A stretch of 64,000 bases of DNA. Origin: Candidatus Shapirobacteria bacterium. Lineage in GTDB: Bacteria > Patescibacteriota > Microgenomatia > UBA12405. The notes beneath the pieces are model-generated. The model ran no database searches. It saw nothing but the letters and a program-made list of their open reading frames with translations, and was not told the origin of the DNA. The DNA lies in contig JBAZYN010000001.1 in assembly GCA_041659325.1 (NCBI GenBank), positions 238,819-302,818 of the forward strand, written 5' to 3'. The position numbers were made by a program, and so were the translations under genes. Positions 6,103-62,563 of the stretch are shown here, one piece after another; position 1 is the stretch's first letter; every line of letters begins with the position of its first letter.

Positions 6103-6114
6103 TTTCTGTAATTC

Positions 6115-6721: not shown

Positions 6722-6722
6722 T

Positions 6723-18128: not shown

Positions 18129-18131
18129 ACT

Positions 18132-18545
18132 GTGGTAAAAAATACCCGGGTAAAAAAATATCATTTTTCCTTCCAAACTGTCATTAGACTCACTATCTTT
18201 TTATTGTTTATATATTTTATAATCACCCAAATTTCCAAGCAAAAACTTCCTGTCGACATGACTTTTAATTCAACCATTCTCGGCGAAAAAACGTCATCAC
18301 CATCAGCTCAATTATTTCTGAAAAACACTTTCGACATCGTCTACGATAAACTTCCTCCAAAAAGTCAGGAGACCATTAATAATCTCGATAATAACCCCCT
18401 AATCACTACTATTCAGGAAAAACTTGATTATGTAAAAAAAGAATCACTAAATTTTCCCCAAAAACAAATAAATGAGATCAAAAAATCCATAATAAATTCC
18501 ATTTATAAAAACATAATGGAAAGCATTAATACCGAAAAACAATGA
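18132..18545 (+). CDS. Hypothetical membrane-anchored protein
   Basis: A single N-terminal TM is present. The remainder is lysine/asparagine-rich. No family recognised. Confidence 0.35.
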
Positions 18546-31506: not shown

Positions 31507-31551
31507 ATAGCTGAAGTATAACTCGAAAAGAGATTCTAGTATAATTAACCA

Positions 31552-44589: not shown

Positions 44590-45402
44590 ATGCCTGAATT
44601 ATCGATAATCGTTCTTACCTGGAACACCTCAGAAATTACAAAAAAGTGTGTTTTAAGTATTAAAAGATCTTTAGAAAATAAAATTGACTATGAAATTATC
44701 GTCGCAGATAACGGATCTACTGATAACACTCAGCAAGTCTTTAAAGACCTAAAATTTGTAAAATATATCAAACTCTCGAAAAACTATGGATTTTCAAAAG
44801 GCAATAATCTGGCGGCAAAATACGCAAAAGGCAAATATATCCTATTTCTCAATTCCGATATGGAATTATTAAATAGTCGGCTTATCGACATGCTTCGTCA
44901 CATTAAACTAAATCCCATAATAGGTCTTATCGGTCCAAAATTTCTAAATGTTGATCAAAGCCCACAGGGATCCGTTTTCCCCCCCCAAACTATTACAAAT
45001 GCCTTCAGAGAATTTTGGTTGGGCCAAAAATCATACTCCAAGTACACACCGGCAACAGATAAGCCAATTGAGGTCTGGGCCGTCTCCGGCGGTGCTGTCA
45101 TTATTGACCGCAGTCTTTTTGAAAAAATCGGTGGCTGGGACACAAGGTATTTTATGTTTTACGAAGACCTGGAATTGTGCCGCCAAATCAAAAAGCTAAA
45201 TTATAAAATATTTTTTTACCCTCAATGCTCACTTGTCCATCATCACGGCGCCAGCGGAAAGAATCTGGCAAGCAATATTAACCAATGGAGACGACTAATT
45301 CCGAGTTCAAAAATATTTCATGGACTCGCAAGGCATTTTTTAATCAACTCTACAATTTGGTCGGGTCAAAAATACCAAAAAATAAAAAGGTTGTTTGGCT
45401 AG
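44590..45402 (+). CDS. Family 2 glycosyltransferase
   Basis: 'MPELSIIVLTWNTSEIT' is followed by 'IVADNGSTDNT' and 'FLNSDMEL'. Confidence 0.7.
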   Translation: MPELSIIVLTWNTSEITKKCVLSIKRSLENKIDYEIIVADNGSTDNTQQVFKDLKFVKYIKLSKNYGFSKGNNLAAKYAKGKYILFLNSDMELLNSRLIDMLRHIKLNPIIGLIGPKFLNVDQSPQGSVFPPQTITNAFREFWLGQKSYSKYTPATDKPIEVWAVSGGAVIIDRSLFEKIGGWDTRYFMFYEDLELCRQIKKLNYKIFFYPQCSLVHHHGASGKNLASNINQWRRLIPSSKIFHGLARHFLINSTIWSGQKYQKIKRLFG

Positions 45403-47036
45403 TAATTTCCTTCATCTTTTTCGACCAAATAAAACAAGGGTAGTCCGTCAAAATCCCTGATCGTTTTCACTGTTTTTATACCACTGGGAGGATCCTTGCT
45501 CCAATCCCAATCACCTCCTACATTTTTTTCCTGTGAAATCAAGTATAAAACACCACTATTCATTTTATTACTTTCCAACCTACCATAAAAATCGACAAAG
45601 CAAACCGCCGGACTGATACAGAAGCCGTCAAATCCATCAATCTGTTTGTCCATTTTGTCCACCACTCCAAAAACACTGGCGGGATCCACTTTGTTCCAAA
45701 ACAAAAATCTGATCAACGACGGCTCATATGTATTATCCATTAATACTCTGTCATATTTTGGATAATTATTGGCAATGTATAACATCGCCTCTTTGTAGCC
45801 ATAATGCCACCATCTGGAGCTCTGGTCCCTATAAAAATTCCAATAATAATATTGGAAATTACAAAATTCAAAAATCAAAATACACATAGCTGCTACCCAC
45901 CATCCTCTGGTTAAGTTAGCAAATCCCAATCCGGCAAAATACATTAACGGATATATCATCAAAAACAATCTGGAGGCATGATTATATCCATCGATTGTCA
46001 AACTCGACGGTATCGGCGCCAATAACAGTAATCCCAACAACCAAAAATCAGCTACCACCTTCTTTTTTCTGGTCATCGTCACCAACAATCCCACTATCAC
46101 TAGTGGAGCCATTATCCAATACAAATTCCCCACCTGCCTCAGTGAGTGTCTAAATGTTATATCACCATTTCTAAACAGAAAATCGGGACTAAAGGCATTT
46201 AAATAGTTAAATAATATTTTCTTGCCCACCACAACATATTTGTTATAAAAAACCTTGGAAATCATTGCATTACCTGAAGCCTCCCGGTACTTGGCCATCT
46301 CTACCACCACCTGTCCGTCGGCAAACACAGAAAATTTACCGAATCTGTCGGCGGCATGACCGTAAAAAATCTGGTAAATCATCGGCAAAGAAAATACTAA
46401 CCCGACAAGAAACAATATCAAATATTGCTTCTTGCTTGCCCGAAAGACGATCAAAGTCATTAGCGCCAATAGCGGCACATAAATATTGGCCGTATTATAA
46501 GTATAAAAACCAAGGCTCAGCAAGAACCCGCTTAAAACAGTAAAATAATATCCGCTCCTTTTTAGTCCTAAAATCAAAAAATATGCTCCCCATATCAGCA
46601 AGGAGGACAGCAATGTCAACTCAAAACCAGCCCGGCTATATTGTATATGCCAGGGAGAAACTGTAATAAAAAATATTACCGCCACAATTACTTTCTTTCG
46701 GATATTTAGAAGCTTCAATGATAAAGCAAACCCCGAAATCCCCAAAATCCCAAAAAATGACGAAACCATTCTTACTCCGAATTCATTTAGCCCAAAAATT
46801 TTTATAAATGGAACCATCGCATACATTAACCCCGGAGCCCTCCATTCAGAAAAACTATGAATATATGCCGGTATTAGATTCCCTTTATAGTCCCTTCCCG
46901 TCATCAATAGAGAATAAGATTGATATCCTGCATCCAATTCGTCCCCAAACAACTCCAGATAGTCTAATCTATAAACCCTCAAAAAAACCGCTAGAACCAT
47001 TAATGCCACCATCATTAGAACAAATTTCACTTTCAT
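45399..47036 (-). CDS. PMT/ArnT-superfamily (GT39/GT83-like) GT-C membrane glycosyltransferase, paralog 2
   Basis: 'LELFGDELDAGYQSYSLLMTGRDYKGNLIP' is the family motif. The C-terminus carries 'YYYWNFY...WWHYGYKEAM'. The start ATG overlaps the stop of the upstream minus-strand gene as ATGA. Confidence 0.6.
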   Translation of the reverse strand: MKVKFVLMMVALMVLAVFLRVYRLDYLELFGDELDAGYQSYSLLMTGRDYKGNLIPAYIHSFSEWRAPGLMYAMVPFIKIFGLNEFGVRMVSSFFGILGISGFALSLKLLNIRKKVIVAVIFFITVSPWHIQYSRAGFELTLLSSLLIWGAYFLILGLKRSGYYFTVLSGFLLSLGFYTYNTANIYVPLLALMTLIVFRASKKQYLILFLVGLVFSLPMIYQIFYGHAADRFGKFSVFADGQVVVEMAKYREASGNAMISKVFYNKYVVVGKKILFNYLNAFSPDFLFRNGDITFRHSLRQVGNLYWIMAPLVIVGLLVTMTRKKKVVADFWLLGLLLLAPIPSSLTIDGYNHASRLFLMIYPLMYFAGLGFANLTRGWWVAAMCILIFEFCNFQYYYWNFYRDQSSRWWHYGYKEAMLYIANNYPKYDRVLMDNTYEPSLIRFLFWNKVDPASVFGVVDKMDKQIDGFDGFCISPAVCFVDFYGRLESNKMNSGVLYLISQEKNVGGDWDWSKDPPSGIKTVKTIRDFDGLPLFYLVEKDEGNY

Positions 47037-48817
47037 ATCCAATAAACAATCGATAAGCCAGCCACCACCATCCACCACCACCAAAAATGTGTCGCTTTAT
47101 TCCATATATCTGTTAATTCAGGAGAAGTCTGACCATATAAATTTACGGCCAAACGATTCTCCTGGTCCATTCCGATCTTTAGTAACCCGTCGTTTACAAC
47201 CACTTTTTGTATTGAAATTTTTAGAGTCTCGGAATTTCTCATTACCAACGGAACATCAACCCTCAGCCACGTGTTTGCCCCGGCGTTAAATCCGCTAAAC
47301 TCTTTCTCAAATGTGTTTCCATTGCTGTCCGAAACAACCAATGTACCGATATCTTTTGAGTTAAGGCCGGGATTGTCCAGAAATATTTCAAAATATTTTA
47401 AACTTGATACAGAATCATATACCCACTCCCGACTTACTATTCCCTCTATCGGTACCCTCGTTTCACTCAATCCGGATGGACTTTTTTCAATAACTTGTAA
47501 ACTGCTAATAAATAAAACCAGTAGGATCATCAACAGCCACGGTAAAAGTATTAACCATTTCGGTAAATCTAATTTTGTTTTATTCTCTACATTATCTTTT
47601 TTTATTTTTTGTCCCAAGAACCAAACCGCCACCCCAGCCAACACACTCTGACAAAGATTAATCAACCCACTAATATTAATAACTCTATTCCTGGCAAATT
47701 CGGATATTGTCGGATAGTTAATCAAATTCGGGCTAATCGGCGCCACCAACCCCCAACTAAGAAATTTATCATCAAAACCAAGAGTCAAACCAATCCACGA
47801 CATCAAAATCAATAAACCAACAATTATTTCAACTTTGGTAATCTTTTTGGTCGCGAATATGATTGAAGCAAATGGTGACAACCATAGTAACCATTGAGGA
47901 TTAAAATGACTAAAACCCAAGATAACCAAAGAGCTCTCCATAATCATCAGACAACCAAAAGATAATTTTTTACCAAAACGGTTGCTCACTGCCTTTAATG
48001 CCACCACCACCAACAGTAACGGTACTATCATTATCTCTTTACCAAAACCAATCGAAATATTTGAGACGAACATTCTCTGTGACAACCCGGAGTTCAACAC
48101 CGCCTCAGTAAAATAACTTTTCCCTATCCAGGGCAACAATATCAACCCGTAAACCATCATCACTCCGAAAAACTTCAGCACCAACTTATAGATACTTTTC
48201 TCCCAAGCCAACAAAAACATAATCACCCATATAATAGGATATGTTTTAACCCCTGCTGCCAACCCCCAAAACAGCACGGCAAGCCCCCACCTCTCGTAAC
48301 ATAATATTCCTGAAAGAAACAAAATTATTGCCACTATATCATTTTGACCCATGACCACCAAAGAGAATAAGGTTATCGGGTTAAAATACCAGATAAGGGC
48401 CGCTCGTAAAGCTTTTTTTTCGTTACCACAATATTTCTTTACAATTCTGTATATCAACCAACCACTTACTAAACCCAAAATCAGCAACGGAAATTTCGCC
48501 GCCAAATTATATCTCAAGGAGTTAACATCAAAACTTGCCTCTGCGCTACCACTCTCAAGCCACTGATCAAAACCACTCCCTCCGATAAATTTTGAAATTG
48601 GATAATGAACCTTCAACCACCAAAAGTGAGCCGGTGGATAGTGAAAATCCGGTATATCTAGTTTGTGAGCATCTATATAACCATAGACATCCCATACTTT
48701 TCCGTTCCCCAATGACGGATACCTTAAGGTCAACTTTGTATCAGGATGATAAGTAAACGGAGCCACTAAAAAATAAACCACCATCGCCAAAAGTATTATT
48801 TTTTTCATATTATTCAA
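47033..48817 (-). CDS. DUF2029/GT87-like GT-C membrane protein, paralog 2
   Basis: 'FNPITLFSLVVMGQNDIVAIILFL' can be compared with 'FNPLGIYVGSMMGQVDIMIAFWLVL' in the 30259 gene. The protein has a long C-terminal soluble domain. Confidence 0.45.
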   Translation of the reverse strand: MNNMKKIILLAMVVYFLVAPFTYHPDTKLTLRYPSLGNGKVWDVYGYIDAHKLDIPDFHYPPAHFWWLKVHYPISKFIGGSGFDQWLESGSAEASFDVNSLRYNLAAKFPLLILGLVSGWLIYRIVKKYCGNEKKALRAALIWYFNPITLFSLVVMGQNDIVAIILFLSGILCYERWGLAVLFWGLAAGVKTYPIIWVIMFLLAWEKSIYKLVLKFFGVMMVYGLILLPWIGKSYFTEAVLNSGLSQRMFVSNISIGFGKEIMIVPLLLVVVALKAVSNRFGKKLSFGCLMIMESSLVILGFSHFNPQWLLWLSPFASIIFATKKITKVEIIVGLLILMSWIGLTLGFDDKFLSWGLVAPISPNLINYPTISEFARNRVINISGLINLCQSVLAGVAVWFLGQKIKKDNVENKTKLDLPKWLILLPWLLMILLVLFISSLQVIEKSPSGLSETRVPIEGIVSREWVYDSVSSLKYFEIFLDNPGLNSKDIGTLVVSDSNGNTFEKEFSGFNAGANTWLRVDVPLVMRNSETLKISIQKVVVNDGLLKIGMDQENRLAVNLYGQTSPELTDIWNKATHFWWWWMVVAGLSIVYWI

Positions 48818-50477
48818 TCGTAATTATACTCGCAGTGTCATAAAGTACGTTTTTGATTTTTTTAATTTTTGCTCCGGGAATCATCTCAATCTCAGAAACG
48901 TGGACATCAGAAGACGTCCAAAAAGCCACATTTCTTAAATTTTTATCAACCGGCCAATCAACTTTTCGAAAAATATATTTATCGAAATTAAAGTTGAGAT
49001 TTCCACATACTCCCGGTTTTGGCCTCAAATAAGAAAAACTTTGAAAAGTTGTCGGGTCGAACTGCTGATAAAACAACAGGAAAATGTAGCTCTGTGCGTG
49101 TGGGCTATCAATTATTATCTGATCATATTTATCCTGAATACTCTCCAAATAAGGCATACCTTCTTTATATCCACCCGGCTGGTATGTACCATTATTTTCA
49201 TAGGATGAATACAGCAGCTCATTATTAATTGTATATATTATTGATACCGCTATTATCGTAACAAAGCCAACCAACAACCCTTTTTTAACATTAGGGGACT
49301 CTACTATACTATTTATGCTCCTAAATACCTGATACACCCCTAGGGCAACAATAATCTCCAGAGCAGGATAAATATTTAAAGACCGCAACGGGTGGTACCA
49401 ATTCCATGTCGCCGCCGCCGGAGCAATCCCGGCTACTATCCAGTAAATTAAAAATCGTAAATTGAAAGATCTTAAAATTCTTTTTATTAAATACAGAAAA
49501 CCAAAAATAAAAAATATGCCCTCTAACCAACCAAGCATCCCCATACCCACAATAAACATTGGTGACATTTCCACCCACTTAAAAATCCTCTCATTTAGAT
49601 TAATAGGGGAAACATATGAAAAAATATGACCACTTATGATCCCGCCCAAATAATATAGGGAGCTTATCGGATTGGTTATCTCATTCGGTGCATATGGATA
49701 AAACCTGGAGAAAACATTTTCTTGCTTAAATCTTGTTAATACATTTCCACCGGTGTTGGCCAATAAAATAGGGACACAAAGAATTACCAGGCCGACAAGT
49801 GGTAACACTTTTTGATAATTTTTATTTATGTATTTCGATAACTCTTTTAATAAATTCTTTTTTAAAACTAGTTTTATGGGGTCCAGTGCCCAAAAGACCA
49901 AAAACATCGGCGCGCTAAGCCGGGCGGAGTGGTAACTATAAATAGAAAGTGCAAAAAACACCGTCGACCAAAAAACTTTAATTTTACTTTTTGTATTAAT
50001 TAAAAACCAGCATCCGGCAATAAAAAAAGCTGCCGACAAATTAGCCTCAAAAGCAGTTCGGGAAAAATGAATTCGCCAAGGTTGAAAAGACAATATTGCA
50101 AAAGTCAACAACAATAAATTTTTATTCCGAATAAATGTTTTCAAAAACAGAAACAAAAATACCAAAGATACTACGCCTACCACTGCCGATACCATCCTTA
50201 CCGCAGAATCATTTAACTCACCAAAATATATAAATGGAATTGTTAGATAAGAGTATAAAGCCGGTTTAAAATCATTAAATGACCTCAAAGACAATGGTAG
50301 TAGATTCCCATACTCATCCTTACCGGTCTTCAGCAAACTATAAGCGTTGTACCCCAAAGCCGCTTCATCATAACCCAATGATGCCGGAGATTTATCTAGA
50401 CCGACAAATCGAACAAACGCTGCCGCTAGTAGAATAATTGACACAAAAATAATTAAAAAAGATTTTCGGCTTATCAC
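48810..50477 (-). CDS. PMT/ArnT-superfamily (GT39/GT83-like) GT-C membrane glycosyltransferase, paralog 3
   Basis: 'LGYDEAALGYNAYSLLKTGKDEYGNLLP' is the family motif. Confidence 0.6.
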   Translation of the reverse strand: MISRKSFLIIFVSIILLAAAFVRFVGLDKSPASLGYDEAALGYNAYSLLKTGKDEYGNLLPLSLRSFNDFKPALYSYLTIPFIYFGELNDSAVRMVSAVVGVVSLVFLFLFLKTFIRNKNLLLLTFAILSFQPWRIHFSRTAFEANLSAAFFIAGCWFLINTKSKIKVFWSTVFFALSIYSYHSARLSAPMFLVFWALDPIKLVLKKNLLKELSKYINKNYQKVLPLVGLVILCVPILLANTGGNVLTRFKQENVFSRFYPYAPNEITNPISSLYYLGGIISGHIFSYVSPINLNERIFKWVEMSPMFIVGMGMLGWLEGIFFIFGFLYLIKRILRSFNLRFLIYWIVAGIAPAAATWNWYHPLRSLNIYPALEIIVALGVYQVFRSINSIVESPNVKKGLLVGFVTIIAVSIIYTINNELLYSSYENNGTYQPGGYKEGMPYLESIQDKYDQIIIDSPHAQSYIFLLFYQQFDPTTFQSFSYLRPKPGVCGNLNFNFDKYIFRKVDWPVDKNLRNVAFWTSSDVHVSEIEMIPGAKIKKIKNVLYDTASIITIE

Positions 50478-51850
50478 TACCTGATGGCTAAACCTATATC
50501 ATTGCCATACTGATTAGCAATCGTGTCCCTCAATCGTTTATGCGCCATAAAACTCCACCCCTGGTTCTGAGCAATTTCTTTCCAATTCTCATCAATATCA
50601 TTGTTAAATTTCGGCCCGACGAACTCACCTGCAAATCCGGCATAAATACTATTCCCAACCAAAATATCGCTTTTCGCATTAAAATTATTAAAGATAATAT
50701 TTGGTTGATCGCACTTCTCTCCCAGATAAAACCGACAATAAGCTTTCGTGTTTCCGATTAGTGTAGTAACCTGAATCCTCGAGTACAAAGATATATCCAC
50801 TGCTCGTAAATTTTCAAACCAAAATTGATATGCCAAAGGTCTGTTGTCAAACCAATACTCTCTCCTGACCGTCATATCATAAAAATTAATCCCAAAACTG
50901 TATATGGTTAAAATACCGAATGCTATCAAAAAAAATCCCGCCAATCCGTATCCTTTTATTCTCGAACTATCCAAATTAACCACCGCTTCCGATAATGTAA
51001 TAGATATTGGCAACATTATAAATACCATTCTCAGCCCCTTGTCGCCCGAATAACTCAAATAATCAATCAGAGAAATAATAAGACAAATAATCAAAAATTT
51101 TGTAGTCTGTTTATTCTTTATTTTCATCAAAAAATAAATTCCGAAAATGCACAAATATATTTCCGGCCAATAAAACATTACGATCGATTTTTGTTCCATC
51201 GGGTGAACTTCCTGAAAAAAAAGTGTTTCTACATCAAAAAATGGTAATATTTCTTTTATCACATTCCTGTAAATAAAAAAATATTTGTTGTAGCTCACTC
51301 GACGCAACCAAAGTGGCGTCATTATTCGAGGAGATAGGGTATCTTCACTCGATATCCTGATAGTAACTTCATCCTGCGCTCCCCCGAGAGACAGTTTTGA
51401 TAATATCGTAGGCCGATTGTTGAAAAGAATCAGATTGGCACCTAAAACCAATACAATTAGGCCCAGACCAATCGCTACAAATCTAACATTTTTTAGATAT
51501 ACGAAGAAAACATATAACGAGCCGATAATTACAAATAACTTTGCTACAATCAGCGGATGTATTAACCATAAAGCAAAAAAGGTTGGCGAAATCAGTACAA
51601 ATATGCACGACCACAAAACCACATTTTTAGAAATATATTTTGAGGCCAACTTATACCAAATCCAAAGATAACCACACGAGACTAAAAAAGTCCCAAACCG
51701 TAGCCCCCACAAGGACAAATCCCCGCCGATATTAAAAATATTTAATATTTTGAGCTGCTCTTCACCGGGGGGATAACTAATTTCTCTCGCTACAATAAAC
51801 TCGATCACCGTAATCAAAAGAAAAATAACCACTACCAACCATTTTTTCAT
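50477..51850 (-). CDS. Unclassified polytopic membrane protein in the GT-C cluster
   Basis: The 457-aa protein has multiple TM segments. The C-terminal region resembles the tails of the GT39-like paralogs. No N-terminal DE motif is present. Confidence 0.35.
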   Translation of the reverse strand: MKKWLVVVIFLLITVIEFIVAREISYPPGEEQLKILNIFNIGGDLSLWGLRFGTFLVSCGYLWIWYKLASKYISKNVVLWSCIFVLISPTFFALWLIHPLIVAKLFVIIGSLYVFFVYLKNVRFVAIGLGLIVLVLGANLILFNNRPTILSKLSLGGAQDEVTIRISSEDTLSPRIMTPLWLRRVSYNKYFFIYRNVIKEILPFFDVETLFFQEVHPMEQKSIVMFYWPEIYLCIFGIYFLMKIKNKQTTKFLIICLIISLIDYLSYSGDKGLRMVFIMLPISITLSEAVVNLDSSRIKGYGLAGFFLIAFGILTIYSFGINFYDMTVRREYWFDNRPLAYQFWFENLRAVDISLYSRIQVTTLIGNTKAYCRFYLGEKCDQPNIIFNNFNAKSDILVGNSIYAGFAGEFVGPKFNNDIDENWKEIAQNQGWSFMAHKRLRDTIANQYGNDIGLAIR

Positions 51851-51879
51851 TAGCTTTAGTATAAAATATATGGTGTCAA

Positions 51880-53514
51880 ATGGAAACTAGGCGCCTTTAT
51901 CTTATATTTATCATTGTTTTAGCTTCATTTTTACGATTTGGGAAGCTCACCTCCCTTCCACCTTCATTATTCTCCGACGAAGTCGATGCCGGTTATCAGG
52001 CATTAACTTTCACCCAAAAACAAACTGACTATTTTGGTAACAAATTTCCTACTCATTTTCACTCGTTCTCTGACTGGCGCACCTCACTCCAAATATATTC
52101 AATCTCTATTTTTCAGAATATTACTAAAAACCACGAAATTTCAGTCCGCCTGCCCTCAGCATTTTTTGGAATTTTTTCAGTTTTTGTACTTTATTTGATA
52201 ACCAAGTCACTAATTCCGACGCTACTGCTTGCAATTTCGCCGTGGGCTATTCACTACAGCCGCACTGGTTTTGAAGTTTCCGGCATGGTTTTGGTAATTT
52301 TATTGGGAATTTATTTTTGGCAACAGTTTCTAAAAACAAATAAATATGTTTTCATTTTTCTTTCGGCCTTTTCTTTTTGTTTATCGCCATATTATTACAG
52401 CACGGCAAAACTTTTTTTACCAATCCTGGCCATTTTGATCTTCTTAATCTGGAAAAAAGAAATAATGAGAATCGGCGTTAAAAAATTATTTCCCGTGGTG
52501 TGTTTTTGTCTTCTGATTCTATCCCCGTTAATTTCTGACACTGTCTCCGGCCGTTCCGGATTTCGTTTCTCATACATCAGCATTTTTACGCAACCCCATC
52601 GGGAACAGGTTGTTGACTCACTCCGGTATCAGGACATTCTCATGGATCACCCAAACCAAATCGGCGTAAAAACACCCCTCCTGTCTTATGTCTTTCATAA
52701 CAAATTACAGATTCCGGCTAAACGATTTATGGAAAATTATATCTCCTCGTTTTCCACTGAATTTCTGATAATCAGGGGAGATGCTAATTCCCGTCATGGC
52801 TTCGGAGGCCACGGACTTATATACCTAATTGATTATTTCCTAATTTTAATCGGGATTTTCGCCACCTTTATCCCTAAAAATAAATTATCTCTCCTCTTCC
52901 TGGGATTATTGCTGACCTCTCCAATCCCCTATGCCCTGACGCGGGATTCAAATTCTCCTCATGCCACCAGACTAATTCTTATGCTGCCATCGATCATCTA
53001 TTTTACCTATCTTGGGATAAACCATTTACGTTCTCAAAACCGACATGTCTTCTACCTCCTGCTAACTTTATATCTACTATCCCTTATAAACTTTGGACAT
53101 TATTATTACTACCACTATCCTCAGGATAGCGCCCGATATTGGCACACCGGCATGAAAGAAGCCATTCTTGCTTCCAATTTTTACTGGGATAACCCCATTG
53201 TATTTTCCGACAGCTACGAACCTTTTCTTCCATTTTTTCTTTTTTACAAACCCCACGAGCTTGACTCAACATCTCTCACTACAAATTTGGTAGAAATTAA
53301 CAACCCCTCTTTTTCCGGTCAAAGCTTGGACAATACATATTATTTTGGGCATATAAATTGGTCAAATTTATCACAATTCCCAAGTAATTCAGTTTTTGTT
53401 GTACCAAAATCAGAATATGATGGACAAAATATTCAGAACACCGTTATTAAACAAGTTATAAATAAGCGATATCTAAACCAGGAAGAATTCTATTTAATCA
53501 CCTTTAACCAATGA
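51880..53514 (+). CDS. PMT/ArnT-superfamily (GT39/GT83-like) GT-C membrane glycosyltransferase, paralog 4
   Basis: 'FSDEVDAGYQALTFTQKQTDYFGNKFP' is the family motif. The C-terminus carries 'HYYYYHYPQDSARYWHTGMKEAI'. Confidence 0.55.
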   Translation: METRRLYLIFIIVLASFLRFGKLTSLPPSLFSDEVDAGYQALTFTQKQTDYFGNKFPTHFHSFSDWRTSLQIYSISIFQNITKNHEISVRLPSAFFGIFSVFVLYLITKSLIPTLLLAISPWAIHYSRTGFEVSGMVLVILLGIYFWQQFLKTNKYVFIFLSAFSFCLSPYYYSTAKLFLPILAILIFLIWKKEIMRIGVKKLFPVVCFCLLILSPLISDTVSGRSGFRFSYISIFTQPHREQVVDSLRYQDILMDHPNQIGVKTPLLSYVFHNKLQIPAKRFMENYISSFSTEFLIIRGDANSRHGFGGHGLIYLIDYFLILIGIFATFIPKNKLSLLFLGLLLTSPIPYALTRDSNSPHATRLILMLPSIIYFTYLGINHLRSQNRHVFYLLLTLYLLSLINFGHYYYYHYPQDSARYWHTGMKEAILASNFYWDNPIVFSDSYEPFLPFFLFYKPHELDSTSLTTNLVEINNPSFSGQSLDNTYYFGHINWSNLSQFPSNSVFVVPKSEYDGQNIQNTVIKQVINKRYLNQEEFYLITFNQ

Positions 53515-55175
53515 AAAACCCGCTACCTTTCTTTAAAAATTATTTTTGGATTATCCTGGTAATTTCCATTAGTTTTTTTTCTTTTAATTCATTGCTAAAA
53601 AGTGGCTATATTCCCATGTATGACGACATGCAACCAATCAGACTTCAGCAACTTGATAAATGTATAAAGGATGGGCAAATACCTTGTCGCTGGACACCAG
53701 ATCTGGGTTATGGCTACGGTTATCCGCTCTTTATTTTCTATTCTCCCTTTGTGTATTATGTCATGGAGATTTTCCACCTTGTTGGGTTTTCAATCCTTAC
53801 TTCAATCAAAATTGGCTTTTTGCTTAGTTTTGTTTTTTCTGCTCTCACCATGTTTCTTTTGGGAAAAATACTTTGGGGAAACCTGGGCGGTCTTGTCTCT
53901 TCCGCTTTTTACATATACGCCCCTTTTCGGGCAACCGATGTTTATAGTCGTGGCGCGGTCAGTGAATTTTGGGCACTTGGATTTTTCCCTTTAATTCTTT
54001 GGTCAATTTTGAACTTTATTCAAAATCCCACCAAAAAAAGAAATAGCCTTTATCTTTCACTTTCGCTTGCCGGTCTTTTACTTACTCATAATTTATCCTC
54101 AATTGCTTTTGCCCCGGTAGCGATAACCTGGACCCTTGTCCTTCTTTCCTATTACAAAAAATGGCAAATTGTCCCTCGGTTGTTTTTAAGTGTTTTTATT
54201 GGCGCTTTATTGTCGGCGTTCTACATCGTCCCTCTGATAGTGGAAAAATCCCTTGTTCACCTTGACAGTATGACGTCGGGATACTTTAATTATCTAGCCC
54301 ATTTTACTTCGATAAGACAACTATTTTTCCGGGGCCACTGGGGTTTTGGCAGCAGCGAACTTGGTCCGTACGACGATGCCTCTTTTGGCATCGGAATTAT
54401 CCACTATCTTTCCCTAATCGTCACTATCGTGTTGTCTCTTAAAAATCAAATTTTTTCTAAAAACAATTTAGTTAAAATTACCCTTCTTTTTTTTACTTTT
54501 ATTTTCGCGTCTTCAATTTTTCTTACTCATTCAAAATCTTCTTTTGTCTGGCAAACATTCACTTTCTTAAAATATTTTCAATTCCCTTGGCGCTTTCTGA
54601 CCCTCTCGATCCTCTCGGGTTCAATTCTCGCCGGTTTCCCTATTTTTCTACTAAGAAAAAACAGTAAATCTGCCGTTTTCTACACAATATTTTTTATTTT
54701 TGTTGTAATCTATTTCAATGTTGGTTTTTTCAGACCATCAGAATATATCAAAATTGACGATCAACAAAAATTGTCGGGAAAAAGTTTAGAACGACAAGTT
54801 ACCGCCAGTATCTACGATTACCTTCCGATTTTTGCCCAAGCGCCTCCCTCAACCCCAGCTCCAAACCTACCCCAGATCATAAGTGGCAGTGCCCAAATAA
54901 TTAGTTACACCAAAGGCACTGATTGGCAAAAGGGAAGTATCATTTCCAATGAAAAAAGTACCATTCAACTTCCGGTATTTTACTATCCTGGCTTTAAATT
55001 ATGGCTCAATGGTCAACAAACAGACATTTCTTATGGTAATAATCTTGGGCTAATTACTTTTAATGTTCCGGCAGGGGAGAGCCAATTTTATCTCAAACTA
55101 ACTCGAACTCCGGATAGAATAATTGGCGATATTTTAACCATTATTGGTATACTAATCCTAATCTTTTATGTCTAA
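53511..55175 (+). CDS. YfhO-like GT-C membrane glycosyltransferase
   Basis: 'MYDDMQPIRLQQLDKCIKDGQIPCRWTPDLGYGYGYPLFIFYSP' is the N-terminal motif. The C-terminus has 'YYPGFKLWLNGQQTDISYGNNLGLITFNVPAGESQFYL' followed by a terminal TM. Confidence 0.55.
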   Translation: MKNPLPFFKNYFWIILVISISFFSFNSLLKSGYIPMYDDMQPIRLQQLDKCIKDGQIPCRWTPDLGYGYGYPLFIFYSPFVYYVMEIFHLVGFSILTSIKIGFLLSFVFSALTMFLLGKILWGNLGGLVSSAFYIYAPFRATDVYSRGAVSEFWALGFFPLILWSILNFIQNPTKKRNSLYLSLSLAGLLLTHNLSSIAFAPVAITWTLVLLSYYKKWQIVPRLFLSVFIGALLSAFYIVPLIVEKSLVHLDSMTSGYFNYLAHFTSIRQLFFRGHWGFGSSELGPYDDASFGIGIIHYLSLIVTIVLSLKNQIFSKNNLVKITLLFFTFIFASSIFLTHSKSSFVWQTFTFLKYFQFPWRFLTLSILSGSILAGFPIFLLRKNSKSAVFYTIFFIFVVIYFNVGFFRPSEYIKIDDQQKLSGKSLERQVTASIYDYLPIFAQAPPSTPAPNLPQIISGSAQIISYTKGTDWQKGSIISNEKSTIQLPVFYYPGFKLWLNGQQTDISYGNNLGLITFNVPAGESQFYLKLTRTPDRIIGDILTIIGILILIFYV

Positions 55176-56178
55176 AATTAGACTAGTACTCTTTTTTTCC
55201 ACCTTGTTTATCATAGGATTTCATCTTCAATTTTCGGCCCCTTCACCCCAAATACTCCAACAAACCGAACAATGTTTCCAAGACGGCCAAATCCCTTGCC
55301 GTTTCCTCCCGAATGTGAACAATGGCTATGGTTATCCCTATTTTACAAGAGAGTCACCCTTTCCTTATTATTTATCCCTAGTCTTTCGAATTTTTGGATT
55401 AAATTATTCATTGAGTCTGGTTATCTCAACCGTTATCGTTTTAGCCGGAACCACCTACCTTCTCAAAAAAATATTGTTTCAAAAAAATCATCTCTTATCA
55501 ATCCTGGCCCCATTAGGTATCAGCCTATTGTTTTTTTACTTTTCAAATGTTTACTTTCTTTTGCCATTTTGTTTATTAATTATTTTCAATACTTCAAATC
55601 CTTTTCTAACCGCCTTAATGTTCGCCTTATTAATTATTTCTAGTTCAAAATTGACACTTGTTCCCTTAATTGTTTTTATAATTATTGTTTTAACACTTTT
55701 GTTTACCCAAAAAAAATCATTTTTGTTGTTGTCAATTTTTTTTGGGCTATTGCTTTCTTCTTTCCATTTGGGCCCAATGCTATTTGACAGATTACCACCA
55801 CTGTCCGGACTTACTTTCTTAAAAAGCTATTATCTTGAACCGTCTGTAGTTTACGGCCGGGCAAATATTTCCCAATACAAAAAAAGGACCAATTTTTGGC
55901 GATTTACGATAAATGTCCCCGCAAACCAATCTTCTGTTATCTCAGTTCCTATCGCTTATTATGATGGTTGGACCGTTCTGCTAAATCAAAAAAAAATAAA
56001 CCCTAACAATCCGGTACTGCTCCAACCCATTGAGTTAACTATTCCCCCGGGAAATCATACTGTAGCTGCCTTTCTTGAAGAAAGCAAAAACCATCTCTTT
56101 TTTAACTCTTTAAGTATAATCTCTTTTATCTCCATTTTTATTTTTACCTTTCCCAAGCATGATCCAAAAAATTCTTAA
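55168..56178 (+). CDS. Shortened YfhO-like paralog (middle region missing)
   Basis: It has both the N-terminal 'CFQDGQIPCRFLPNVNNGYGYPYF' motif and the C-terminal 'YYDGWTVLLNQKKI...PPGNHTV' motif. It is only 336 aa, against about 555 aa for its neighbours. Confidence 0.45.
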   Translation: MSKIRLVLFFSTLFIIGFHLQFSAPSPQILQQTEQCFQDGQIPCRFLPNVNNGYGYPYFTRESPFPYYLSLVFRIFGLNYSLSLVISTVIVLAGTTYLLKKILFQKNHLLSILAPLGISLLFFYFSNVYFLLPFCLLIIFNTSNPFLTALMFALLIISSSKLTLVPLIVFIIIVLTLLFTQKKSFLLLSIFFGLLLSSFHLGPMLFDRLPPLSGLTFLKSYYLEPSVVYGRANISQYKKRTNFWRFTINVPANQSSVISVPIAYYDGWTVLLNQKKINPNNPVLLQPIELTIPPGNHTVAAFLEESKNHLFFNSLSIISFISIFIFTFPKHDPKNS

Positions 56179-57841
56179 AAACCACATATTTTGGATTATA
56201 ATTTTTATTGCTGCCCTTTGGCAGGGAAAATATCTTTTTAATTCGGGGTTTTATACTTTTTCAGACGAATCTCATATCGCCAATCTCCATCAAATGGTTC
56301 AAGCCTTAAAATCCGGCCAATTCCCTCCTCGTTGGGCCCCAAACTTCAGTTATAACTTCGGTCATCCATTTTTCATTTTTTATTATTTACTTCCGTCTTA
56401 TTTCGGTAGCTTTTTAAATATATTCTTAGGCCTAAGTCTAATTTGGTCACTGAAAATTACCTTTTTTATATCAACTTTGGGTTCAGGACTTGCTATGTAT
56501 TTTCTTTCCCGCCAATTTTTTACCAAAACCGTCTCAACCGCCGTGGCCCTAATTTATCTTTTTACCCCGTATCGGGCAGTAGACCTCTATGCCAGAGGTG
56601 CTGTCGGGGAATTGTTTGGCTTTCTTTTTATGCCTTTGGTTTTTTTAAGTTTTATTCTTCTGATAAAAAATAAAGATAAAAAATATTTTGCTTTTGCTGT
56701 ATTTTCACTTTTCTTTCTTATTATTTCCCACCAGTTAACATTGATTATATTTTTTCCGTTTCTTCTATTTTTGTCTATTACTTACATCTATTTTTACTAC
56801 CCACCCCAAAAAGCAAAATTTCCTTTTTTAAGAATATTTTGGGCCATTTTGCTCTCCTTTTGTCTCGCAACATATTACTTAATCCCGGCTATTTTTGAAA
56901 AAAAATACATGCAGGGGGGGACTCCTTTTAACCCCATAGATCATTTTCCATTCATAAAACAGTTAATAATTCCTTACTGGGGATACGGTGCCTCAGTTTG
57001 GGGCCCTACCGATCAACTTTCGTTTAATATCGGTATCGCCAATCTCATTGGAGTAATTTTAATTATTCCTTTTGCTATTTTCTCTCGCAATATTAAATAC
57101 AAGAGTGTCATCGTCAGTCTTTTATTATGTTTTTCTATCGCCGTTTTTATGATGAATATTCGTTCTTGGCCTCTTTGGCAGATTGTCCCCATTGCCTCGT
57201 ACATCCAATTTCCCTGGCGATTCCTAATTCTAACTACTTTTACCACTCCTCTACTAATTGGCTTCCTTTCTCTCAAAAAAAACTTCTCCTGGCTACCGAT
57301 AGTTCTGGCTGTGGTAGCTACAATCAGTACCGCAAACTATTTTCGGCCTCACAAAATTTTGAATGTTGACGATAACTATTTTTTAAATCGATTTTTTATA
57401 AATCAAAACACTCAACGCGATCCGTCTCTTATTTCCAGTGAATATCAATTAAACTCCGAAGATTACCTGCCATTGACCAACTGGACGATCAAGCGACCAA
57501 CAAGTCTTCTCTCAAAAATTGATGTTGCCCCCGAAGTCACTGTTTCAAATATAAAATATCTTTCAGAAATCTCGCTTAGTTTTACTGCCAAATCAGCAGC
57601 ACCAACAATAATTAAAATAAGTAACTACTATTATCCCGGTTGGCAAGCAAAAATTGATGGTCAGATTACTCCGGTTTTCCCGGTTGATGATACCGGTAGA
57701 ATTGGTATTAATATGTCTGCCGGTGAACACCAGGTTTTTCTCGAATTTAAAAACACACCTCTTCGTACTATCGCCGACGCGATTTCTCTTTTAACTATAG
57801 TATTTTTTGCTATCTATCTTGTCTATGAAAAACATTCATAA
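56159..57841 (+). CDS. YfhO-like GT-C membrane glycosyltransferase
   Basis: 'ANLHQMVQALKSGQFPPRWAPNFSYNFGHPFFIFYY' is the N-terminal motif. 'YYYPGWQAKIDGQITPVFPVDDTGRIGINMSAGEHQVFL' follows, then the terminal TM 'AISLLTIVFFAIYLVY'. Confidence 0.55.
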   Translation: MIQKILKNHIFWIIIFIAALWQGKYLFNSGFYTFSDESHIANLHQMVQALKSGQFPPRWAPNFSYNFGHPFFIFYYLLPSYFGSFLNIFLGLSLIWSLKITFFISTLGSGLAMYFLSRQFFTKTVSTAVALIYLFTPYRAVDLYARGAVGELFGFLFMPLVFLSFILLIKNKDKKYFAFAVFSLFFLIISHQLTLIIFFPFLLFLSITYIYFYYPPQKAKFPFLRIFWAILLSFCLATYYLIPAIFEKKYMQGGTPFNPIDHFPFIKQLIIPYWGYGASVWGPTDQLSFNIGIANLIGVILIIPFAIFSRNIKYKSVIVSLLLCFSIAVFMMNIRSWPLWQIVPIASYIQFPWRFLILTTFTTPLLIGFLSLKKNFSWLPIVLAVVATISTANYFRPHKILNVDDNYFLNRFFINQNTQRDPSLISSEYQLNSEDYLPLTNWTIKRPTSLLSKIDVAPEVTVSNIKYLSEISLSFTAKSAAPTIIKISNYYYPGWQAKIDGQITPVFPVDDTGRIGINMSAGEHQVFLEFKNTPLRTIADAISLLTIVFFAIYLVYEKHS

Positions 57842-59414: not shown

Positions 59415-60990
59415 AATAATTCTAAGCATAATCACTGTCATCGCCTTTGTTCTCCGTTTTTATCAAAGCGGCAACTACCCACCCCTACTTTGGGACGAAG
59501 CTGCCATTGGCTACAACGCCTATTCCCTTACCGAAACGGGAAAAGATGAATATGGAGTTACTCTACCACTCATCTTTAAATCTTTCGGAGATTTTAAACC
59601 GGGTTTATATATTTATTTAGCCGCCCCTTTCATCAAACTTTTTGGGTTAAACGAAATCGCGGTCAGACTACCATCAATAATCATCGGCTCATTGTTACCA
59701 CTTCTTCTTTTTTTTACCATTAAAACAATCTATCCGAAATCAAATAATCGTGCTTTAATTGCTACCACTATTCTTGCACTCAATCCGTTCAACATTCATT
59801 ATTCCCGTATGGCCTGGGAAACGAATGTCCTAACCTTTGAGCTTCTGCTTGCCGCTCTATTTTTCATAAAAAATCGACATCTTCTCTCTGCCTTCATTTT
59901 TGGGCTTACCCTCTACACCTACCAAGCCGGAAAAATGACGAGCATTTTAGTAATCATCGCCTTATTCTTTACTCATCTCAGTTTAATAAAACAGCAAATA
60001 AACAAATTGACACTAAAATTTATCCTGCCTCTGGGATTAATGGCCATTCCAATTTTATTTGGCCTAATATTTAACCAAAACAGTAACCGGTTGGAAGTAA
60101 TCAGCCTAACCTCGTACCCCAGATCAGATGAAGAAACGGCTCAAATTATCAACGAGTCCGGTTTAATCGATTACACAATTTTTCATAGCCAACCGTCTTT
60201 TTTTATCCGAAGTTTTTTGGGGCGTTACTTTAACCATTTTTCCCCCCGCTTTCTTTTGTTCGAAGGGGATTGGCAAAACCCCCGCCACTCAGCTCCCTAT
60301 GTCGGCGTAATTCTCTATCCCTCAATCATTTTCCTGCTAATCGGCCTGTTTTCAAAACCAAATAAATTCTTTCTCCTCTGGCTTCTTCTGGCCCCAATTC
60401 CTGCCGCCCTCACCAGAGACCAGCTTACTGCCACCCGATCCATGTCCATGTCAATTCCTTTGGTCTTCTTTGTCGCCAGCGGAATTATAATTACAGTTCA
60501 AAAATATAATTCCAAACTGATTAATCTCGCCATATTATCTGCTTATTTACTCTCCTTTATTTACTACTCTGATCTGTATTTAAACCACATGGTCAAAAAA
60601 TCACCCAATGATTTTCTCTACGGATACAAACAAGCCGCTCAATACATTTCGAAAAACCAATCAAAGTTCGACCAAATTTATTTTACAGACTTTTACGGTC
60701 AACCATATATCTACTATCTTTTTTACTCACATTATTCCCCAGTTTCATACCAATCAAAAGCAAACTTAACCCAAACCGGGCCTGATATCGGAAAAGTAGA
60801 AAAAATAGATAACATATTATTCAAAGGCCCCGACTACAACGGCGTTAAAAGCATTCCGCACACCCTCAGTATCTTCTCCCACGATGAAATTTTAAGGCAG
60901 GGGATAGATCTGAAACCCGACTTTAATAATTTTTTCAAACTTAGCCCTATCAATAATATTTCCACCTTTTATGCCTACGAAACACCATAA
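59398..60990 (+). CDS. PMT/ArnT-superfamily (GT39/GT83-like) GT-C membrane glycosyltransferase, paralog 6
   Basis: 'LWDEAAIGYNAYSLTETGKDEYGVTLP' is the family motif. I chose the internal ATG at 59398. Confidence 0.6.
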   Translation: MNLKTKIILSIITVIAFVLRFYQSGNYPPLLWDEAAIGYNAYSLTETGKDEYGVTLPLIFKSFGDFKPGLYIYLAAPFIKLFGLNEIAVRLPSIIIGSLLPLLLFFTIKTIYPKSNNRALIATTILALNPFNIHYSRMAWETNVLTFELLLAALFFIKNRHLLSAFIFGLTLYTYQAGKMTSILVIIALFFTHLSLIKQQINKLTLKFILPLGLMAIPILFGLIFNQNSNRLEVISLTSYPRSDEETAQIINESGLIDYTIFHSQPSFFIRSFLGRYFNHFSPRFLLFEGDWQNPRHSAPYVGVILYPSIIFLLIGLFSKPNKFFLLWLLLAPIPAALTRDQLTATRSMSMSIPLVFFVASGIIITVQKYNSKLINLAILSAYLLSFIYYSDLYLNHMVKKSPNDFLYGYKQAAQYISKNQSKFDQIYFTDFYGQPYIYYLFYSHYSPVSYQSKANLTQTGPDIGKVEKIDNILFKGPDYNGVKSIPHTLSIFSHDEILRQGIDLKPDFNNFFKLSPINNISTFYAYETP

Positions 60991-62563
60991 TTATCTTCTA
61001 ATCACCATATTATTAATGGCCACTATTCTTCGTTTCTACAAAATTGGTTCCTACCCCAGCCTAAATCCGGACGAAGCCGCCCTGGGATACAACGCCTATT
61101 CACTGCTTGAAACCGGAAAAGACGAGCACGGTGCCTCCTGGCCTCTTCATTTCAAATCATTTGGTGACTACAAACCCGGCGGGTATGTTTATCTTGCCTT
61201 GCCTTTTATAAAAATACTCGGTCTCACCCCACTTGCAGTTCGATTACCAAACCTTATCCTTTCTATTCTCGCCATTTATTATTTATCCAAACTCGTTTTC
61301 CTTCTATTCGAGTCTAAAGGTCCGAGGTTGAATCGTTCAAAAGCTCAAAACCTATCGCTTTTGAGCTCTGCTGTTCTGGCTCTCTCCCCCTGGCATATTC
61401 ACTTTAGCAGGGGAGCCTGGGAGGCCTATAGTGCCCTAAGTCTGATCATTATCGGTATCTATTTTTTCTACTCACATCTTAAAAATCTCAAAAACTTCCA
61501 TCTCTATCTATCCGTTATCCTTATTTCTCTTTCGCTATATTTCTACCACTCGGCAAGAATTTTAGCTCCTCTAATCGGGCTGTCTCTGGTGACAATTAAC
61601 TTCAAAAGACTAACTCGATCAGGTATCAGAAAATTATTAATACCAATAATTATTACCATTTTATTGGCTCTACCGGTACTATTTTCCTTTGTCAGAAACG
61701 GCGGCGCCGCCCGATTTGGCGGTGTCGGACTAACCGCCGATCAGGGACCAATTTGGCGGTCAAACGAGCTACTGAATCAACACAACAATGTTAAGTTAAT
61801 TAATCGGGCCATGCACAATAAGCGGATTCTTTATTTCCTCTCCTGGGCACAAAAATATACTTCCCACTTCGATTTAAATTTCCTATTTTTAAATGGTGAT
61901 GAAGTTCCCCGATCAAAGGTACCGGAAATGGGCCAACTTTATCTTTTTGAATTACCCTTTTTAATTATTGGAATCTTTTTCTTCCTCAAATCCAGGGCAA
62001 TTAACAAAAAGACAAAAACCCTTATTCTCTCATTTTTACTTTTCGCTCCTCTGGCCTCATCTTTAACCTTTCAGGCTCCTTCCGCCCTCCGGTCTCTCCC
62101 GATGACTATTCCGTTATCAATCTTAATTGCCTACGGCCTTTATCATTTTTTTAAATGTCGTCCGCTTCTCATATTAATTGCTTTCTGCTCGCTACTTTCT
62201 ATCTTCTATTACCTCGATGCCTATTTTGTTCACTCACAAAAACGTTATCCATATGCCTGGAATCTCGGTTTTGACCAAATAGTCTCCCTGGTAGAGTCAC
62301 AAAAGAATAATTATCAAAACATATTTTTTACCTCTCGGTATGACCAACCGTATATTCTTTACTTATTTTTTTCCAAATACCCACCGCAAAAACTGCAATC
62401 TCAAATTAAATTAACCCCAAAAGACCAATACGGTTTTTCTACCGTCGATAGAATTGACAACATTACCTTTATAATTCCCACCGAAATTCCCTCCTCGTCT
62501 ATGGTCATCGAAGCTTCTGATTTCCAATTAACCGGCCAAAGCTTTAAAATATACACTAAATGA
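60971..62563 (+). CDS. PMT/ArnT-superfamily (GT39/GT83-like) GT-C membrane glycosyltransferase, paralog 7
   Basis: 'NPDEAALGYNAYSLLETGKDEHGASWP' is the family motif. Confidence 0.6.
   Translation: MPTKHHNYLLITILLMATILRFYKIGSYPSLNPDEAALGYNAYSLLETGKDEHGASWPLHFKSFGDYKPGGYVYLALPFIKILGLTPLAVRLPNLILSILAIYYLSKLVFLLFESKGPRLNRSKAQNLSLLSSAVLALSPWHIHFSRGAWEAYSALSLIIIGIYFFYSHLKNLKNFHLYLSVILISLSLYFYHSARILAPLIGLSLVTINFKRLTRSGIRKLLIPIIITILLALPVLFSFVRNGGAARFGGVGLTADQGPIWRSNELLNQHNNVKLINRAMHNKRILYFLSWAQKYTSHFDLNFLFLNGDEVPRSKVPEMGQLYLFELPFLIIGIFFFLKSRAINKKTKTLILSFLLFAPLASSLTFQAPSALRSLPMTIPLSILIAYGLYHFFKCRPLLILIAFCSLLSIFYYLDAYFVHSQKRYPYAWNLGFDQIVSLVESQKNNYQNIFFTSRYDQPYILYLFFSKYPPQKLQSQIKLTPKDQYGFSTVDRIDNITFIIPTEIPSSSMVIEASDFQLTGQSFKIYTK

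Follow-up and report, generated by a model that had tools for sequence, protein, structure and literature searches.

Seven ArnT/PMT-like GT-C glycosyltransferase paralogs in and near a glycosylation island of a Candidatus Shapirobacteria bacterium

The seven paralogs and their layout

The window analysed here is a stretch of 64,000 nucleotides (nt) from a small-genome, groundwater-type Candidatus Shapirobacteria bacterium (Microgenomates/Patescibacteria; assembly GCA_041659325.1, contig JBAZYN010000001.1, positions 238,819 to 302,818), and all coordinates below are counted from its first letter. Our subject is a cluster of membrane-protein genes at 45399-62563, for which the listing of open reading frames (ORFs) gives eleven long ORFs, four on the minus strand and seven on the plus strand. 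All-against-all BLASTP places six of them, referred to here as P1 to P6, in one family of GT-C glycosyltransferases, together with a seventh member, P7, at 11990-13459. The initial annotation had described the region as an array of paralogs; six of the seven members are indeed found there, but five other membrane-protein genes are interspersed among them, and the seventh paralog of which it spoke is P7, outside both gene blocks.

The two blocks, which had been called convergent, in fact diverge from a 29-nt spacer, with the start codon of the minus-strand block at 51850 and that of the plus-strand block at 51880, and the sole convergent junction is at 45399-45402, between P1 and the upstream plus-strand GT2 gene. 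When the most sensible start codons are used, the junctions of the minus-strand block are a 4-nt overlap (ATGA) at 47033-47036, a 1-nt gap at 48809 and a 1-nt overlap at 50477, while the plus-strand genes and the gene that follows them overlap by 4, 8, 20, 17, 17, 20 and 4 nt at 53511, 55168, 56159, 57825, 59398, 60971 and 62560, respectively. The overlaps of 1-20 nt reported earlier are therefore present, apart from the one gap, but they do not set the array apart, since 17 of the 26 other same-strand junctions of the window overlap as well and overlap is thus a property of the genome.

In the minus-strand block, P1 (45399-47036) encodes 545 residues from an ATG at 47036, and its stop shares 4 nt with that of the convergent GT2 gene, while P2 (48810-50477) begins with a GTG that overlaps the upstream stop by 1 nt. 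The plus-strand block carries P3 (51880-53514) and a conserved triple, which P4 (57825-59414) opens and P6 (60971-62563) closes; between them lies P5 (59398-60990), the protein used for the structure model. P7 (plus strand, 489 residues) scores 356 bits with the hidden Markov model of the family and lies outside the island described below, in a housekeeping stretch (8750-13459, plus strand) made up of secA, an overlapping 200-residue ORF and P7, with a DHH-family gene next. Among the clustered copies compared, P1-P4 and P6 are 25-36% identical to P5, and P7 shares 25-30% BLASTP identity with P1, P2, P4, P5 and P6 over more than 450 residues.

All seven paralogs have an acidic D-E pair about 6 residues after the first transmembrane helix (TM1). 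The longer motif around this pair, DE[AVI]..GY[NQ]AYSL[LT].TGKD[EQ].G, had been described as invariant in the six clustered copies; this holds for the D-E pair, but in a six-frame regular-expression search the full motif was matched by four ORFs only, namely P2 (50307-50369), P4 (57924-57986), P5 (59494-59556) and P6 (61070-61132). P7 comes within one residue of it, with AYSIL (DEAVTGYNAYSILKTGKDENG at 12080-12142). P1 and P3 retain only DE...GYQ and a later D..G: P1 reads DELDAGYQSYSLLMTGRDYKG where others have the long motif, its subfamily being marked by DE.D.GYQ...DY.G...EWRAP, and P3 carries the degenerate form DEVDAGYQALTFTQKQTDYFG at 51976-52011. These variants recur in many representatives of clusters at 50% identity, which argues that they mark subfamilies rather than decay, and in both subfamilies Lys67 (numbered as in P5) is replaced by Arg.

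The family is large, comprising 28,570 clusters (50% identity) at E ≤ 1e-3 and 6,225 at 1e-30. In a set of 82 sequences, most of them 23-39% identical to P5, the residues E34, D50, Y73, R90, R137 and R347 (P5 numbering) are invariant, and D33, G38 and Y39 are conserved in at least 90%. Hundreds of P5 orthologues of ~60% identity come from Shapirobacteria and related metagenome-assembled genomes (MAGs), and a sequence in NCBI that is identical to P5 carries the name 'phospholipid carrier-dependent glycosyltransferase'.

Family assignment and maintenance of the copies

In the AlphaFold2 model of P5 (pLDDT 86.3, pTM 0.86), TM1 spans residues 3-26 and is followed by a helix at 32-47 that opens with D33-E34; a multi-helix membrane domain then leads to a C-terminal alpha/beta domain at 410-530. 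A Foldseek search of the PDB with this model returned ArnT first (5F15/5EZM, E 3e-5), then STT3, PglB, Pmt4 (rank 11), ALG12 and ALG9, and all 19 matches with E ≤ 0.01 are GT-C enzymes; Pmt1-Pmt2 (6P25) follows at rank 23 with E=0.4. The C-terminal domain in isolation (model pLDDT 68) found no Foldseek match better than E=0.9. P5 also matches PF02366 (PMT) with 41.8 bits (1.2e-10, cutoff 22.7), in a segment that spans the D-E motif, and PF13231 (PMT_2) with 36.3 bits (8e-9), and the PF13231 score of P3 (29.3 bits) likewise exceeds the cutoff. In the scan of P1-P6, a PF02366 match was absent from P1, P2, P3 and P6, and neither PF16192 (PMT_4TMC) nor PF02815 (MIR) was detected at E ≤ 0.01.

Profile comparisons lead to the same relatives. 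In the PDB, the 82-sequence profile matched only ArnT (5EZM, E=1.1e-4), with K67-P68 of the family falling on the E-K-P of ArnT, and hhalign against E. coli ArnT (b2257, P=0.0017) places GY on the RY of DETRYAE and FGDFKP on YFEKP. With an N-terminal profile, the family pattern P..L.wDEa..GY was aligned to P..vvFDEVHFGkF of two Pmt4 structures, 9E61 and 9I5K, and the spacing R-x12-DE-x3-G, counted on this alignment, is equal in the family and in Pmt4. Of the four matches with E under 10, three, namely ArnT and the two Pmt4 entries, belong to the GT-C enzymes, and no PMT/ArnT entry appeared in another register. In PMTs, DE in loop 1 is a hallmark and its mutation impairs activity (PMC8698208, PMC12705809), while the first periplasmic loop of ArnT contains Tyr43 (of RYA) and Lys69 (of YFEKP), which are both needed for function (PMC5377068).

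Judged by the model and the profiles, the D-E pair is the loop-1 acidic motif, as had been supposed from its resemblance to eukaryotic PMTs: it is predicted to open the first extracytoplasmic helix, it lies inside the PF02366 match and it aligns, if weakly, to Pmt4. The earlier label 'PMT/ArnT-like' is upheld by the Pfam families, by the Foldseek matches to ArnT, STT3, PglB and Pmt4 and by the deep profile. Its filing under GT39 is not, because the short first loop is of the ArnT kind, MIR and PMT_4TMC both went undetected and ArnT is the nearest solved relative; on the evidence of sequence and model, the family is an ArnT/PMT-like GT-C family and not strictly GT39.

It should be noted that a number of these results pull the other way. 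The global TM-scores of the Foldseek matches are only ~0.48; the Pfam scores of P1 (PF13231, 22.6 bits) and P4 (PF02366, 20.3 bits) do not reach the gathering cutoffs, and for P2 and P6 Pfam gave no match at all. The hhalign match to E. coli ArnT has a probability of 16% and leaves D-E offset by two residues, and the two Pmt4 matches that carry the D-E alignment are weak, with E of 0.21 and 2.4. PDB searches with a 6-sequence profile, a 45-sequence profile and the single N-terminal half gave chance matches only, and the 82-sequence profile was required to reach ArnT. Separately, a flippase-associated role was rejected, as NCBIfam TIGR03663/Agl23 matched only below threshold (44.8 bits, cutoff 126).

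The likeness to ArnT (GT83; Cupriavidus metallidurans 5EZM/5F15, E. coli b2257) is one of fold, as both are GT-C proteins that end in an extracytoplasmic domain, and of the first external loop, which in both is short and combines an acidic pair with an aromatic (R/G)Y..A and with (E/D)-x-K-P (PMC5377068); an ArnC-like GT2 is, in addition, encoded nearby in the island. However, identity to the family is only 11-12%, and the loop differs in detail, with DE-x3-GY[NQ]A against DE-x-RYA of ArnT and FGD[FYW]KP against YFEKP; overall, the family variants of these signatures are GY[NQ]A and F(G/S)D(F/Y/W)(K/R)(P/A). The setting differs as well, as homologues of arnA, arnB and arnD are missing from the 51 genes of the window, a lipid A acceptor is not expected in bacteria of the Candidate Phyla Radiation (CPR), and there are seven paralogs instead of one gene. 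With the GT39 PMTs (yeast Pmt1/2/4, actinobacterial Pmt) the family shares the PMT domain of P5 and a D-E directly after TM1, aligned to Pmt4, and eukaryotes also carry multiple paralogs; unlike these enzymes, it has no detected MIR or PMT_4TMC and a much shorter loop 1, and a protein acceptor is here only putative.

We next turn to the maintenance of the copies. Another Shapirobacteria genome, L001 (GCA_028685145.1), has full-length one-to-one orthologues of P2-P6 with 45-61% identity, and orthologues of family members in a closer relative, L083, are 76-81% identical (for P2, 50% in L001 and 78% in L083; for P3, 46% and 76%). P1 has weaker best matches in relatives, at ~35% identity. In the comparison with L083, the proportion of nonsynonymous differences (pN) is 0.11-0.21 and that of synonymous differences (pS) 0.70-0.74, with dN/dS of ~0.05 for P4, although pS (~0.72) is saturated and the dN/dS values are rough estimates of an upper-bound type. 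A scan of one genome per GTDB species, queried with the four strict-motif paralogs, yielded no fewer than 576 loci, which belong to Shapirobacteria, Woesebacteria and other Patescibacteria. Of these, 42 reach 20 kb or more; they hold 3-7 family members each (median 5), and 40 of the 42 have a tandem run of at least three. By best-hit assignment, the order P4-P5-P6 recurs across dozens of species, and 12 loci have the full pattern of the window, P2(-) P3(+) P4 P5 P6.

Orthologue identities above the 25-36% seen between paralogs, the recurring gene order with its fixed P4-P5-P6 triple, a pN far below pS and the recurrence of the motif variants together indicate that the duplications are ancient and that each copy is under purifying selection. 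The earlier statement that the seven members are not decaying duplicates agrees with this.

Many third-party (TPA) assembled MAGs with a Shapirobacteria-type cluster (~60% identity; L003, L007, L008 and others) are titled 'uncultured Gammaproteobacteria bacterium'. These records are most likely mislabelled.

The surrounding island and its expression

Two of the five interleaved genes belong to the minus-strand block. The gene at 47033-48808, whose stop overlaps the P1 start (ATGA), encodes a GT87-like polytopic membrane protein of 591 residues (PF09594, 35 bits, cutoff 25) that falls into a different GT-C group and has a paralog at 30259-31650 (minus strand). The block is headed by 50477-51850, always paired with P2 through the 1-nt overlap, which encodes a divergent membrane protein of 457 residues, homologous to the family in the C-terminal half only (residues 255-443; hhalign 95.5%, E=1.5e-8) and without a match in the Pfam scan. 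Its first loop is truncated, and in the orthologue alignment a conserved YPPxE[ED]QL stands in place of the DE...GY...KP loop. It has full-length one-to-one orthologues, 38% identical in L001 and 63% in L083, and its product may be a non-canonical or accessory subunit.

The other three, all on the plus strand between P3 and P4, are PTPS_related/YfhO-like. The first (53511-55175) encodes a polytopic membrane protein (PF10131, 28.8 bits) with the acidic motif YDDMQP and paralogs at 35078, 28778 and 56159, and belongs to a separate, putative GT-C group; the last (56159-57841, 560 residues; BLASTP matches to 53511, 35078 and 28778) is a second full-length paralog, whose orthologue in L001 is 36% identical and inverted. 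The copy between them (55168-56178), not a family member, is shortened to 336 residues, lacks ~200 central residues together with the acidic motif and has no counterpart in L001 or L083, and from its sequence it is probably a degenerate or decaying duplicate. The number of genes in this segment changes from three in the window to two, inverted, in L001 (4959-8275) and one in L083 (6828-8438), while the P genes that flank it stay fixed in both. PDB searches with the YfhO-like and GT87-like neighbours gave no match.

The array forms the right half of an island of ~38 kb, from 25251 to at least 63384. At its left edge, a plus-strand GT2 gene (25251-25976, PF00535) encodes a polyprenyl-phosphate sugar synthase-like protein, with ArnC (8e-16), DPMS 5MLZ (1e-12) and GtrB 5EKP (2e-11) as best PDB matches; judged by these, its product likely makes the lipid-linked donor, and it has a 29% identical paralog at 31552-32316, likewise an ArnC/DPMS/GtrB-like GT2 gene. 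A Wzx-type polysaccharide flippase is encoded at 36730-38220 (plus strand; PF13440 2e-43, PF01943 3e-21), and a GT2 gene at 62560-63384 (plus strand; PF00535 7e-20) joins P6 through an ATGA overlap, just as a PF00535 GT2 gene of ~275 residues follows the P6 orthologue in L001. Second-group PMT_2 proteins at 25973, 27453 and 33822 are homologous to the family (hhalign E=7e-16), and 32297-33820 encodes a further DE-bearing relative (E=7e-10). With four full-length YfhO/PTPS_related-like and two GT87-like proteins, the island holds ~19 GT-C-like genes in four groups, and there are also one GT4 and six more GT2 genes besides those at 25251 and 31552. The 559-residue membrane protein at 38199-39878 proved unrelated to the family.

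The island is bordered by a DUF11 surface protein (24541-25167, minus strand) whose C-terminus carries a membrane anchor, and elsewhere in the window lie a sortase (2475-3200, minus strand) and a LytR-CpsA-Psr (LCP) ligase (19618-20649, plus strand). All three fit a Gram-positive-like envelope, and among them are candidate substrates of glycosylation and one candidate enzyme for polymer attachment.

Several features of the window lie apart from these genes. Its G+C content is ~38%, and scans for tRNA genes and Rfam families found none. Two gaps, 6103-6722 (620 nt) and 17749-18541 (793 nt), contain no ORF of at least 150 residues and no tRNA or Rfam match, a notable length in a genome whose genes are otherwise densely packed. 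In every 2-kb bin of 1-64000 the plus strand has a negative GC skew (-0.06 to -0.31), regardless of gene strand, and the AT skew flips with gene orientation; an excess of C over G on the strand with most genes is unusual. At 3922-6102 (plus strand), a class II aminoacyl-tRNA synthetase of 726 residues (tRNA-synt_2 and OB anticodon domain) ends in a B3_4 domain, which normally belongs to the PheRS beta subunit.

With respect to expression, none of the 51 window genes is preceded by a Shine-Dalgarno-like motif. A generic sigma-70 and terminator scan came out near the level of shuffled sequence, and it was a targeted count of -10-like boxes that proved informative. Of the 20 genes that come first in their unit, 13 have a -10-like hexamer no more than 22 nt from the start, mostly at -12 to -7, compared with 5 of 31 internal genes and 5.9% of random 22-mers. 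At the unit heads, TATAAT-like boxes end ~7 nt before the start, for example at 1266-2393 (minus strand), 14480-16321 (minus strand), 31552-32316 and the pair 51850/51880, and from this pattern the mRNAs of this genome appear, as a rule, to be leaderless or nearly so.

The 29-nt divergent spacer (51851-51879) contains two back-to-back boxes, TATACT (position -13 relative to the minus-strand gene) and TAAAAT (-18 relative to the plus-strand gene), and its core, TTAGTATAAAATA, is conserved in three other species (L033, L034 and L045). It is likely a bidirectional promoter that would yield leaderless or very short-leader mRNAs. Both blocks begin at this spacer, and its -10-like boxes and conserved core make two divergent operons plausible, with reinitiation at the overlapping junctions; the initial annotation had read co-transcription from the overlaps.

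Proposed role and rival readings

We consider it probable that the paralogs are polyprenyl-phosphate-sugar-dependent GT-C enzymes, each with its own donor, linkage or acceptor, which act outside the membrane to assemble or decorate envelope glycans, secreted proteins being the main alternative acceptor, and that the clustered genes are expressed as two divergent operons. In the cytoplasm, GT2 enzymes like ArnC, DPMS and GtrB would load a sugar onto polyprenyl phosphate; the lipid-linked sugar would then be flipped across the membrane, for which the island encodes a Wzx-type flippase, and each GT-C paralog would transfer it, with inversion, to an acceptor at the outer face. There, the D-E pair that opens the first external loop would activate or position the acceptor, and the polyprenyl phosphate would be held by the conserved Tyr together with the K/R-P element and the Arg residues. 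What most likely sets the paralogs apart from one another is the donor sugar, the linkage or the acceptor, and together they would form a line that assembles or decorates an envelope glycopolymer outside the cytoplasm, comparable to mycobacterial emb/aft or to Gram-positive multi-component systems. Both operons would be expressed from the 29-nt bidirectional promoter region, and since Shine-Dalgarno sites are absent, termination-reinitiation at the stop/start overlaps is the probable way in which the internal cistrons are translated.

Two known systems help to frame this proposal. In the mycobacterial emb operon, EmbC-EmbA-EmbB (GT53) are homologous GT-C paralogs, 40-46% identical, which use a polyprenyl-phosphate sugar outside the membrane and differ in acceptor, arabinogalactan (AG) versus lipoarabinomannan (LAM) (PMC7341804). 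Together with the related Aft/Mpt GT-C enzymes, it is the best analogue for a P4-P5-P6 triple among further GT-C genes, as an analogy of organisation only; the Emb proteins belong to another GT family and are much larger, with carbohydrate-binding modules. In Gram-positive multi-component systems (CsbB/GtcA/YfhO, GtlA/GtlB, Csd pairs), a GT-A enzyme makes a C55-P-sugar, a GtrA- or Wzx-type flippase moves it and a PMT_2/YfhO GT-C enzyme decorates teichoic acids or wall polysaccharides (PMC8035078). The window likewise encodes GT-A synthase, Wzx flippase and GT-C enzymes together, but those systems consist of two or three genes with one GT-C enzyme per modification, whereas the island has ~19 GT-C-like genes, and no GtrA-type flippase was seen.

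The proposal starts from family identity, fold, motif position, conservation, purifying selection and gene layout, which are observed, and from these we infer donor, acceptor, activity, catalytic roles, co-transcription and translational coupling. This distance weighs against it, as do the lack of a GtrA-type flippase and a consensus promoter scan that barely exceeds shuffled sequence (72 versus 58.5 +/- 7.3). A further difficulty concerns the acceptor: the genomic context as a whole would favour an envelope glycopolymer, yet the gene content fits a glycopolymer and a protein acceptor alike, and the PMT match of P5 (PF02366, 1.2e-10, covering the DE region) and the position of P7 downstream of secA favour a protein.

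These last two points support the most serious alternative, a true PMT-type protein O-glycosyltransferase system, in which the paralogs, or heteromeric pairs of them as in yeast Pmt1-Pmt2, would act on Ser/Thr-rich regions of Sec-exported surface proteins; pilins, S-layer proteins and sortase-anchored proteins would be candidate substrates. The alignment of D-E to FDEVHFG of Pmt4 with the same R-x12-DE-x3-G spacing is in line with such a system, and so are the sortase and the anchored DUF11 surface protein in the window. There is precedent as well, as PMTs function as paralog dimers (PMC12705809), and in streptococci a GT-C enzyme and GtrB glycosylate Ser/Thr-rich regions of membrane proteins (protein O-glucosylation by GtrB/PgtC2; PMC12041528). 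However, ArnT and not PMT is the nearest structure and the only significant PDB profile match, with Pmt1-Pmt2 far down the Foldseek ranking; the first loop is short (~36 residues), with the ArnT-like GY..A and KP elements, and neither PMT_4TMC nor MIR was detected. A Wzx flippase, a GT4, many GT2 and GT87-like neighbours are, moreover, typical of glycopolymer synthesis. On balance we regard this alternative as possible but rather unlikely.

The same resemblance to ArnT could be read more literally, with the paralogs as ArnT-like lipid glycosyltransferases that decorate membrane lipids or lipoglycan anchors (e.g. glycolipid phosphates) and alter surface charge. CPR bacteria are generally held to lack lipopolysaccharide (LPS) and lipid A, which counts against this. 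In its favour are ArnT as the best structural and profile match, the ArnC-like GT2 of the island and first-loop motifs that resemble RYA and YFEKP (PMC5377068), but no arn homologue (arnA, arnB or arnD) accompanies the family in the window, and seven conserved paralogs with ~12 further GT-C-like genes are hard to square with a single lipid modification. We give this reading little credence.

That the copies are redundant or decaying duplicates, or products of MAG mis-assembly with only one or two functional enzymes, is scarcely credible and largely refuted for the seven members: the degraded long motif of P1 and P3, the truncated neighbour without acidic motif (55168-56178) and the variable PTPS_related/YfhO-like copy number could suggest it, but recent duplication, mis-assembly and pseudogenisation were rejected in view of paralog identities of 25-36%, full-length one-to-one orthologues of P2-P6 in other species (P1 having only its weaker matches), P1 and P3 variants that are conserved subfamilies, a pN far below pS and the same gene order in dozens of independent assemblies.

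We thus return to enzymes of envelope-glycan assembly as the preferred reading. The cluster is real and conserved, and its enzyme type is known and already annotated in public records; in the literature on GT-C or PMT arrays of CPR/Patescibacteria, we found no paper that describes it. More speculatively, and with considerable doubt, we suggest that P4-P5-P6, P2 with its truncated partner and ~12 GT-C-like genes might form a clade-wide, emb-like assembly line, possibly hetero-oligomeric, which would build a hitherto undescribed envelope glycopolymer or glycoprotein coat specific to Microgenomates.

The envelope composition of CPR/Patescibacteria is largely obscure, and these cells depend on surface contact with their hosts. 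The presence of ~19 GT-C-type genes in one island of a reduced genome, with the seven family members under purifying selection, points to an elaborate extracytoplasmic glycan chemistry. While it adds no new enzyme type, the cluster offers a concrete set of candidates whose catalytic residues are predicted and which could be taken into expression work and glycan or glycoprotein analysis. If the assembly line were real, it would occupy ~6-7% of the ~0.57-Mb contig, placing it among the largest biosynthetic investments of such reduced genomes, and it would offer a handle on the interaction of CPR cells with their hosts.

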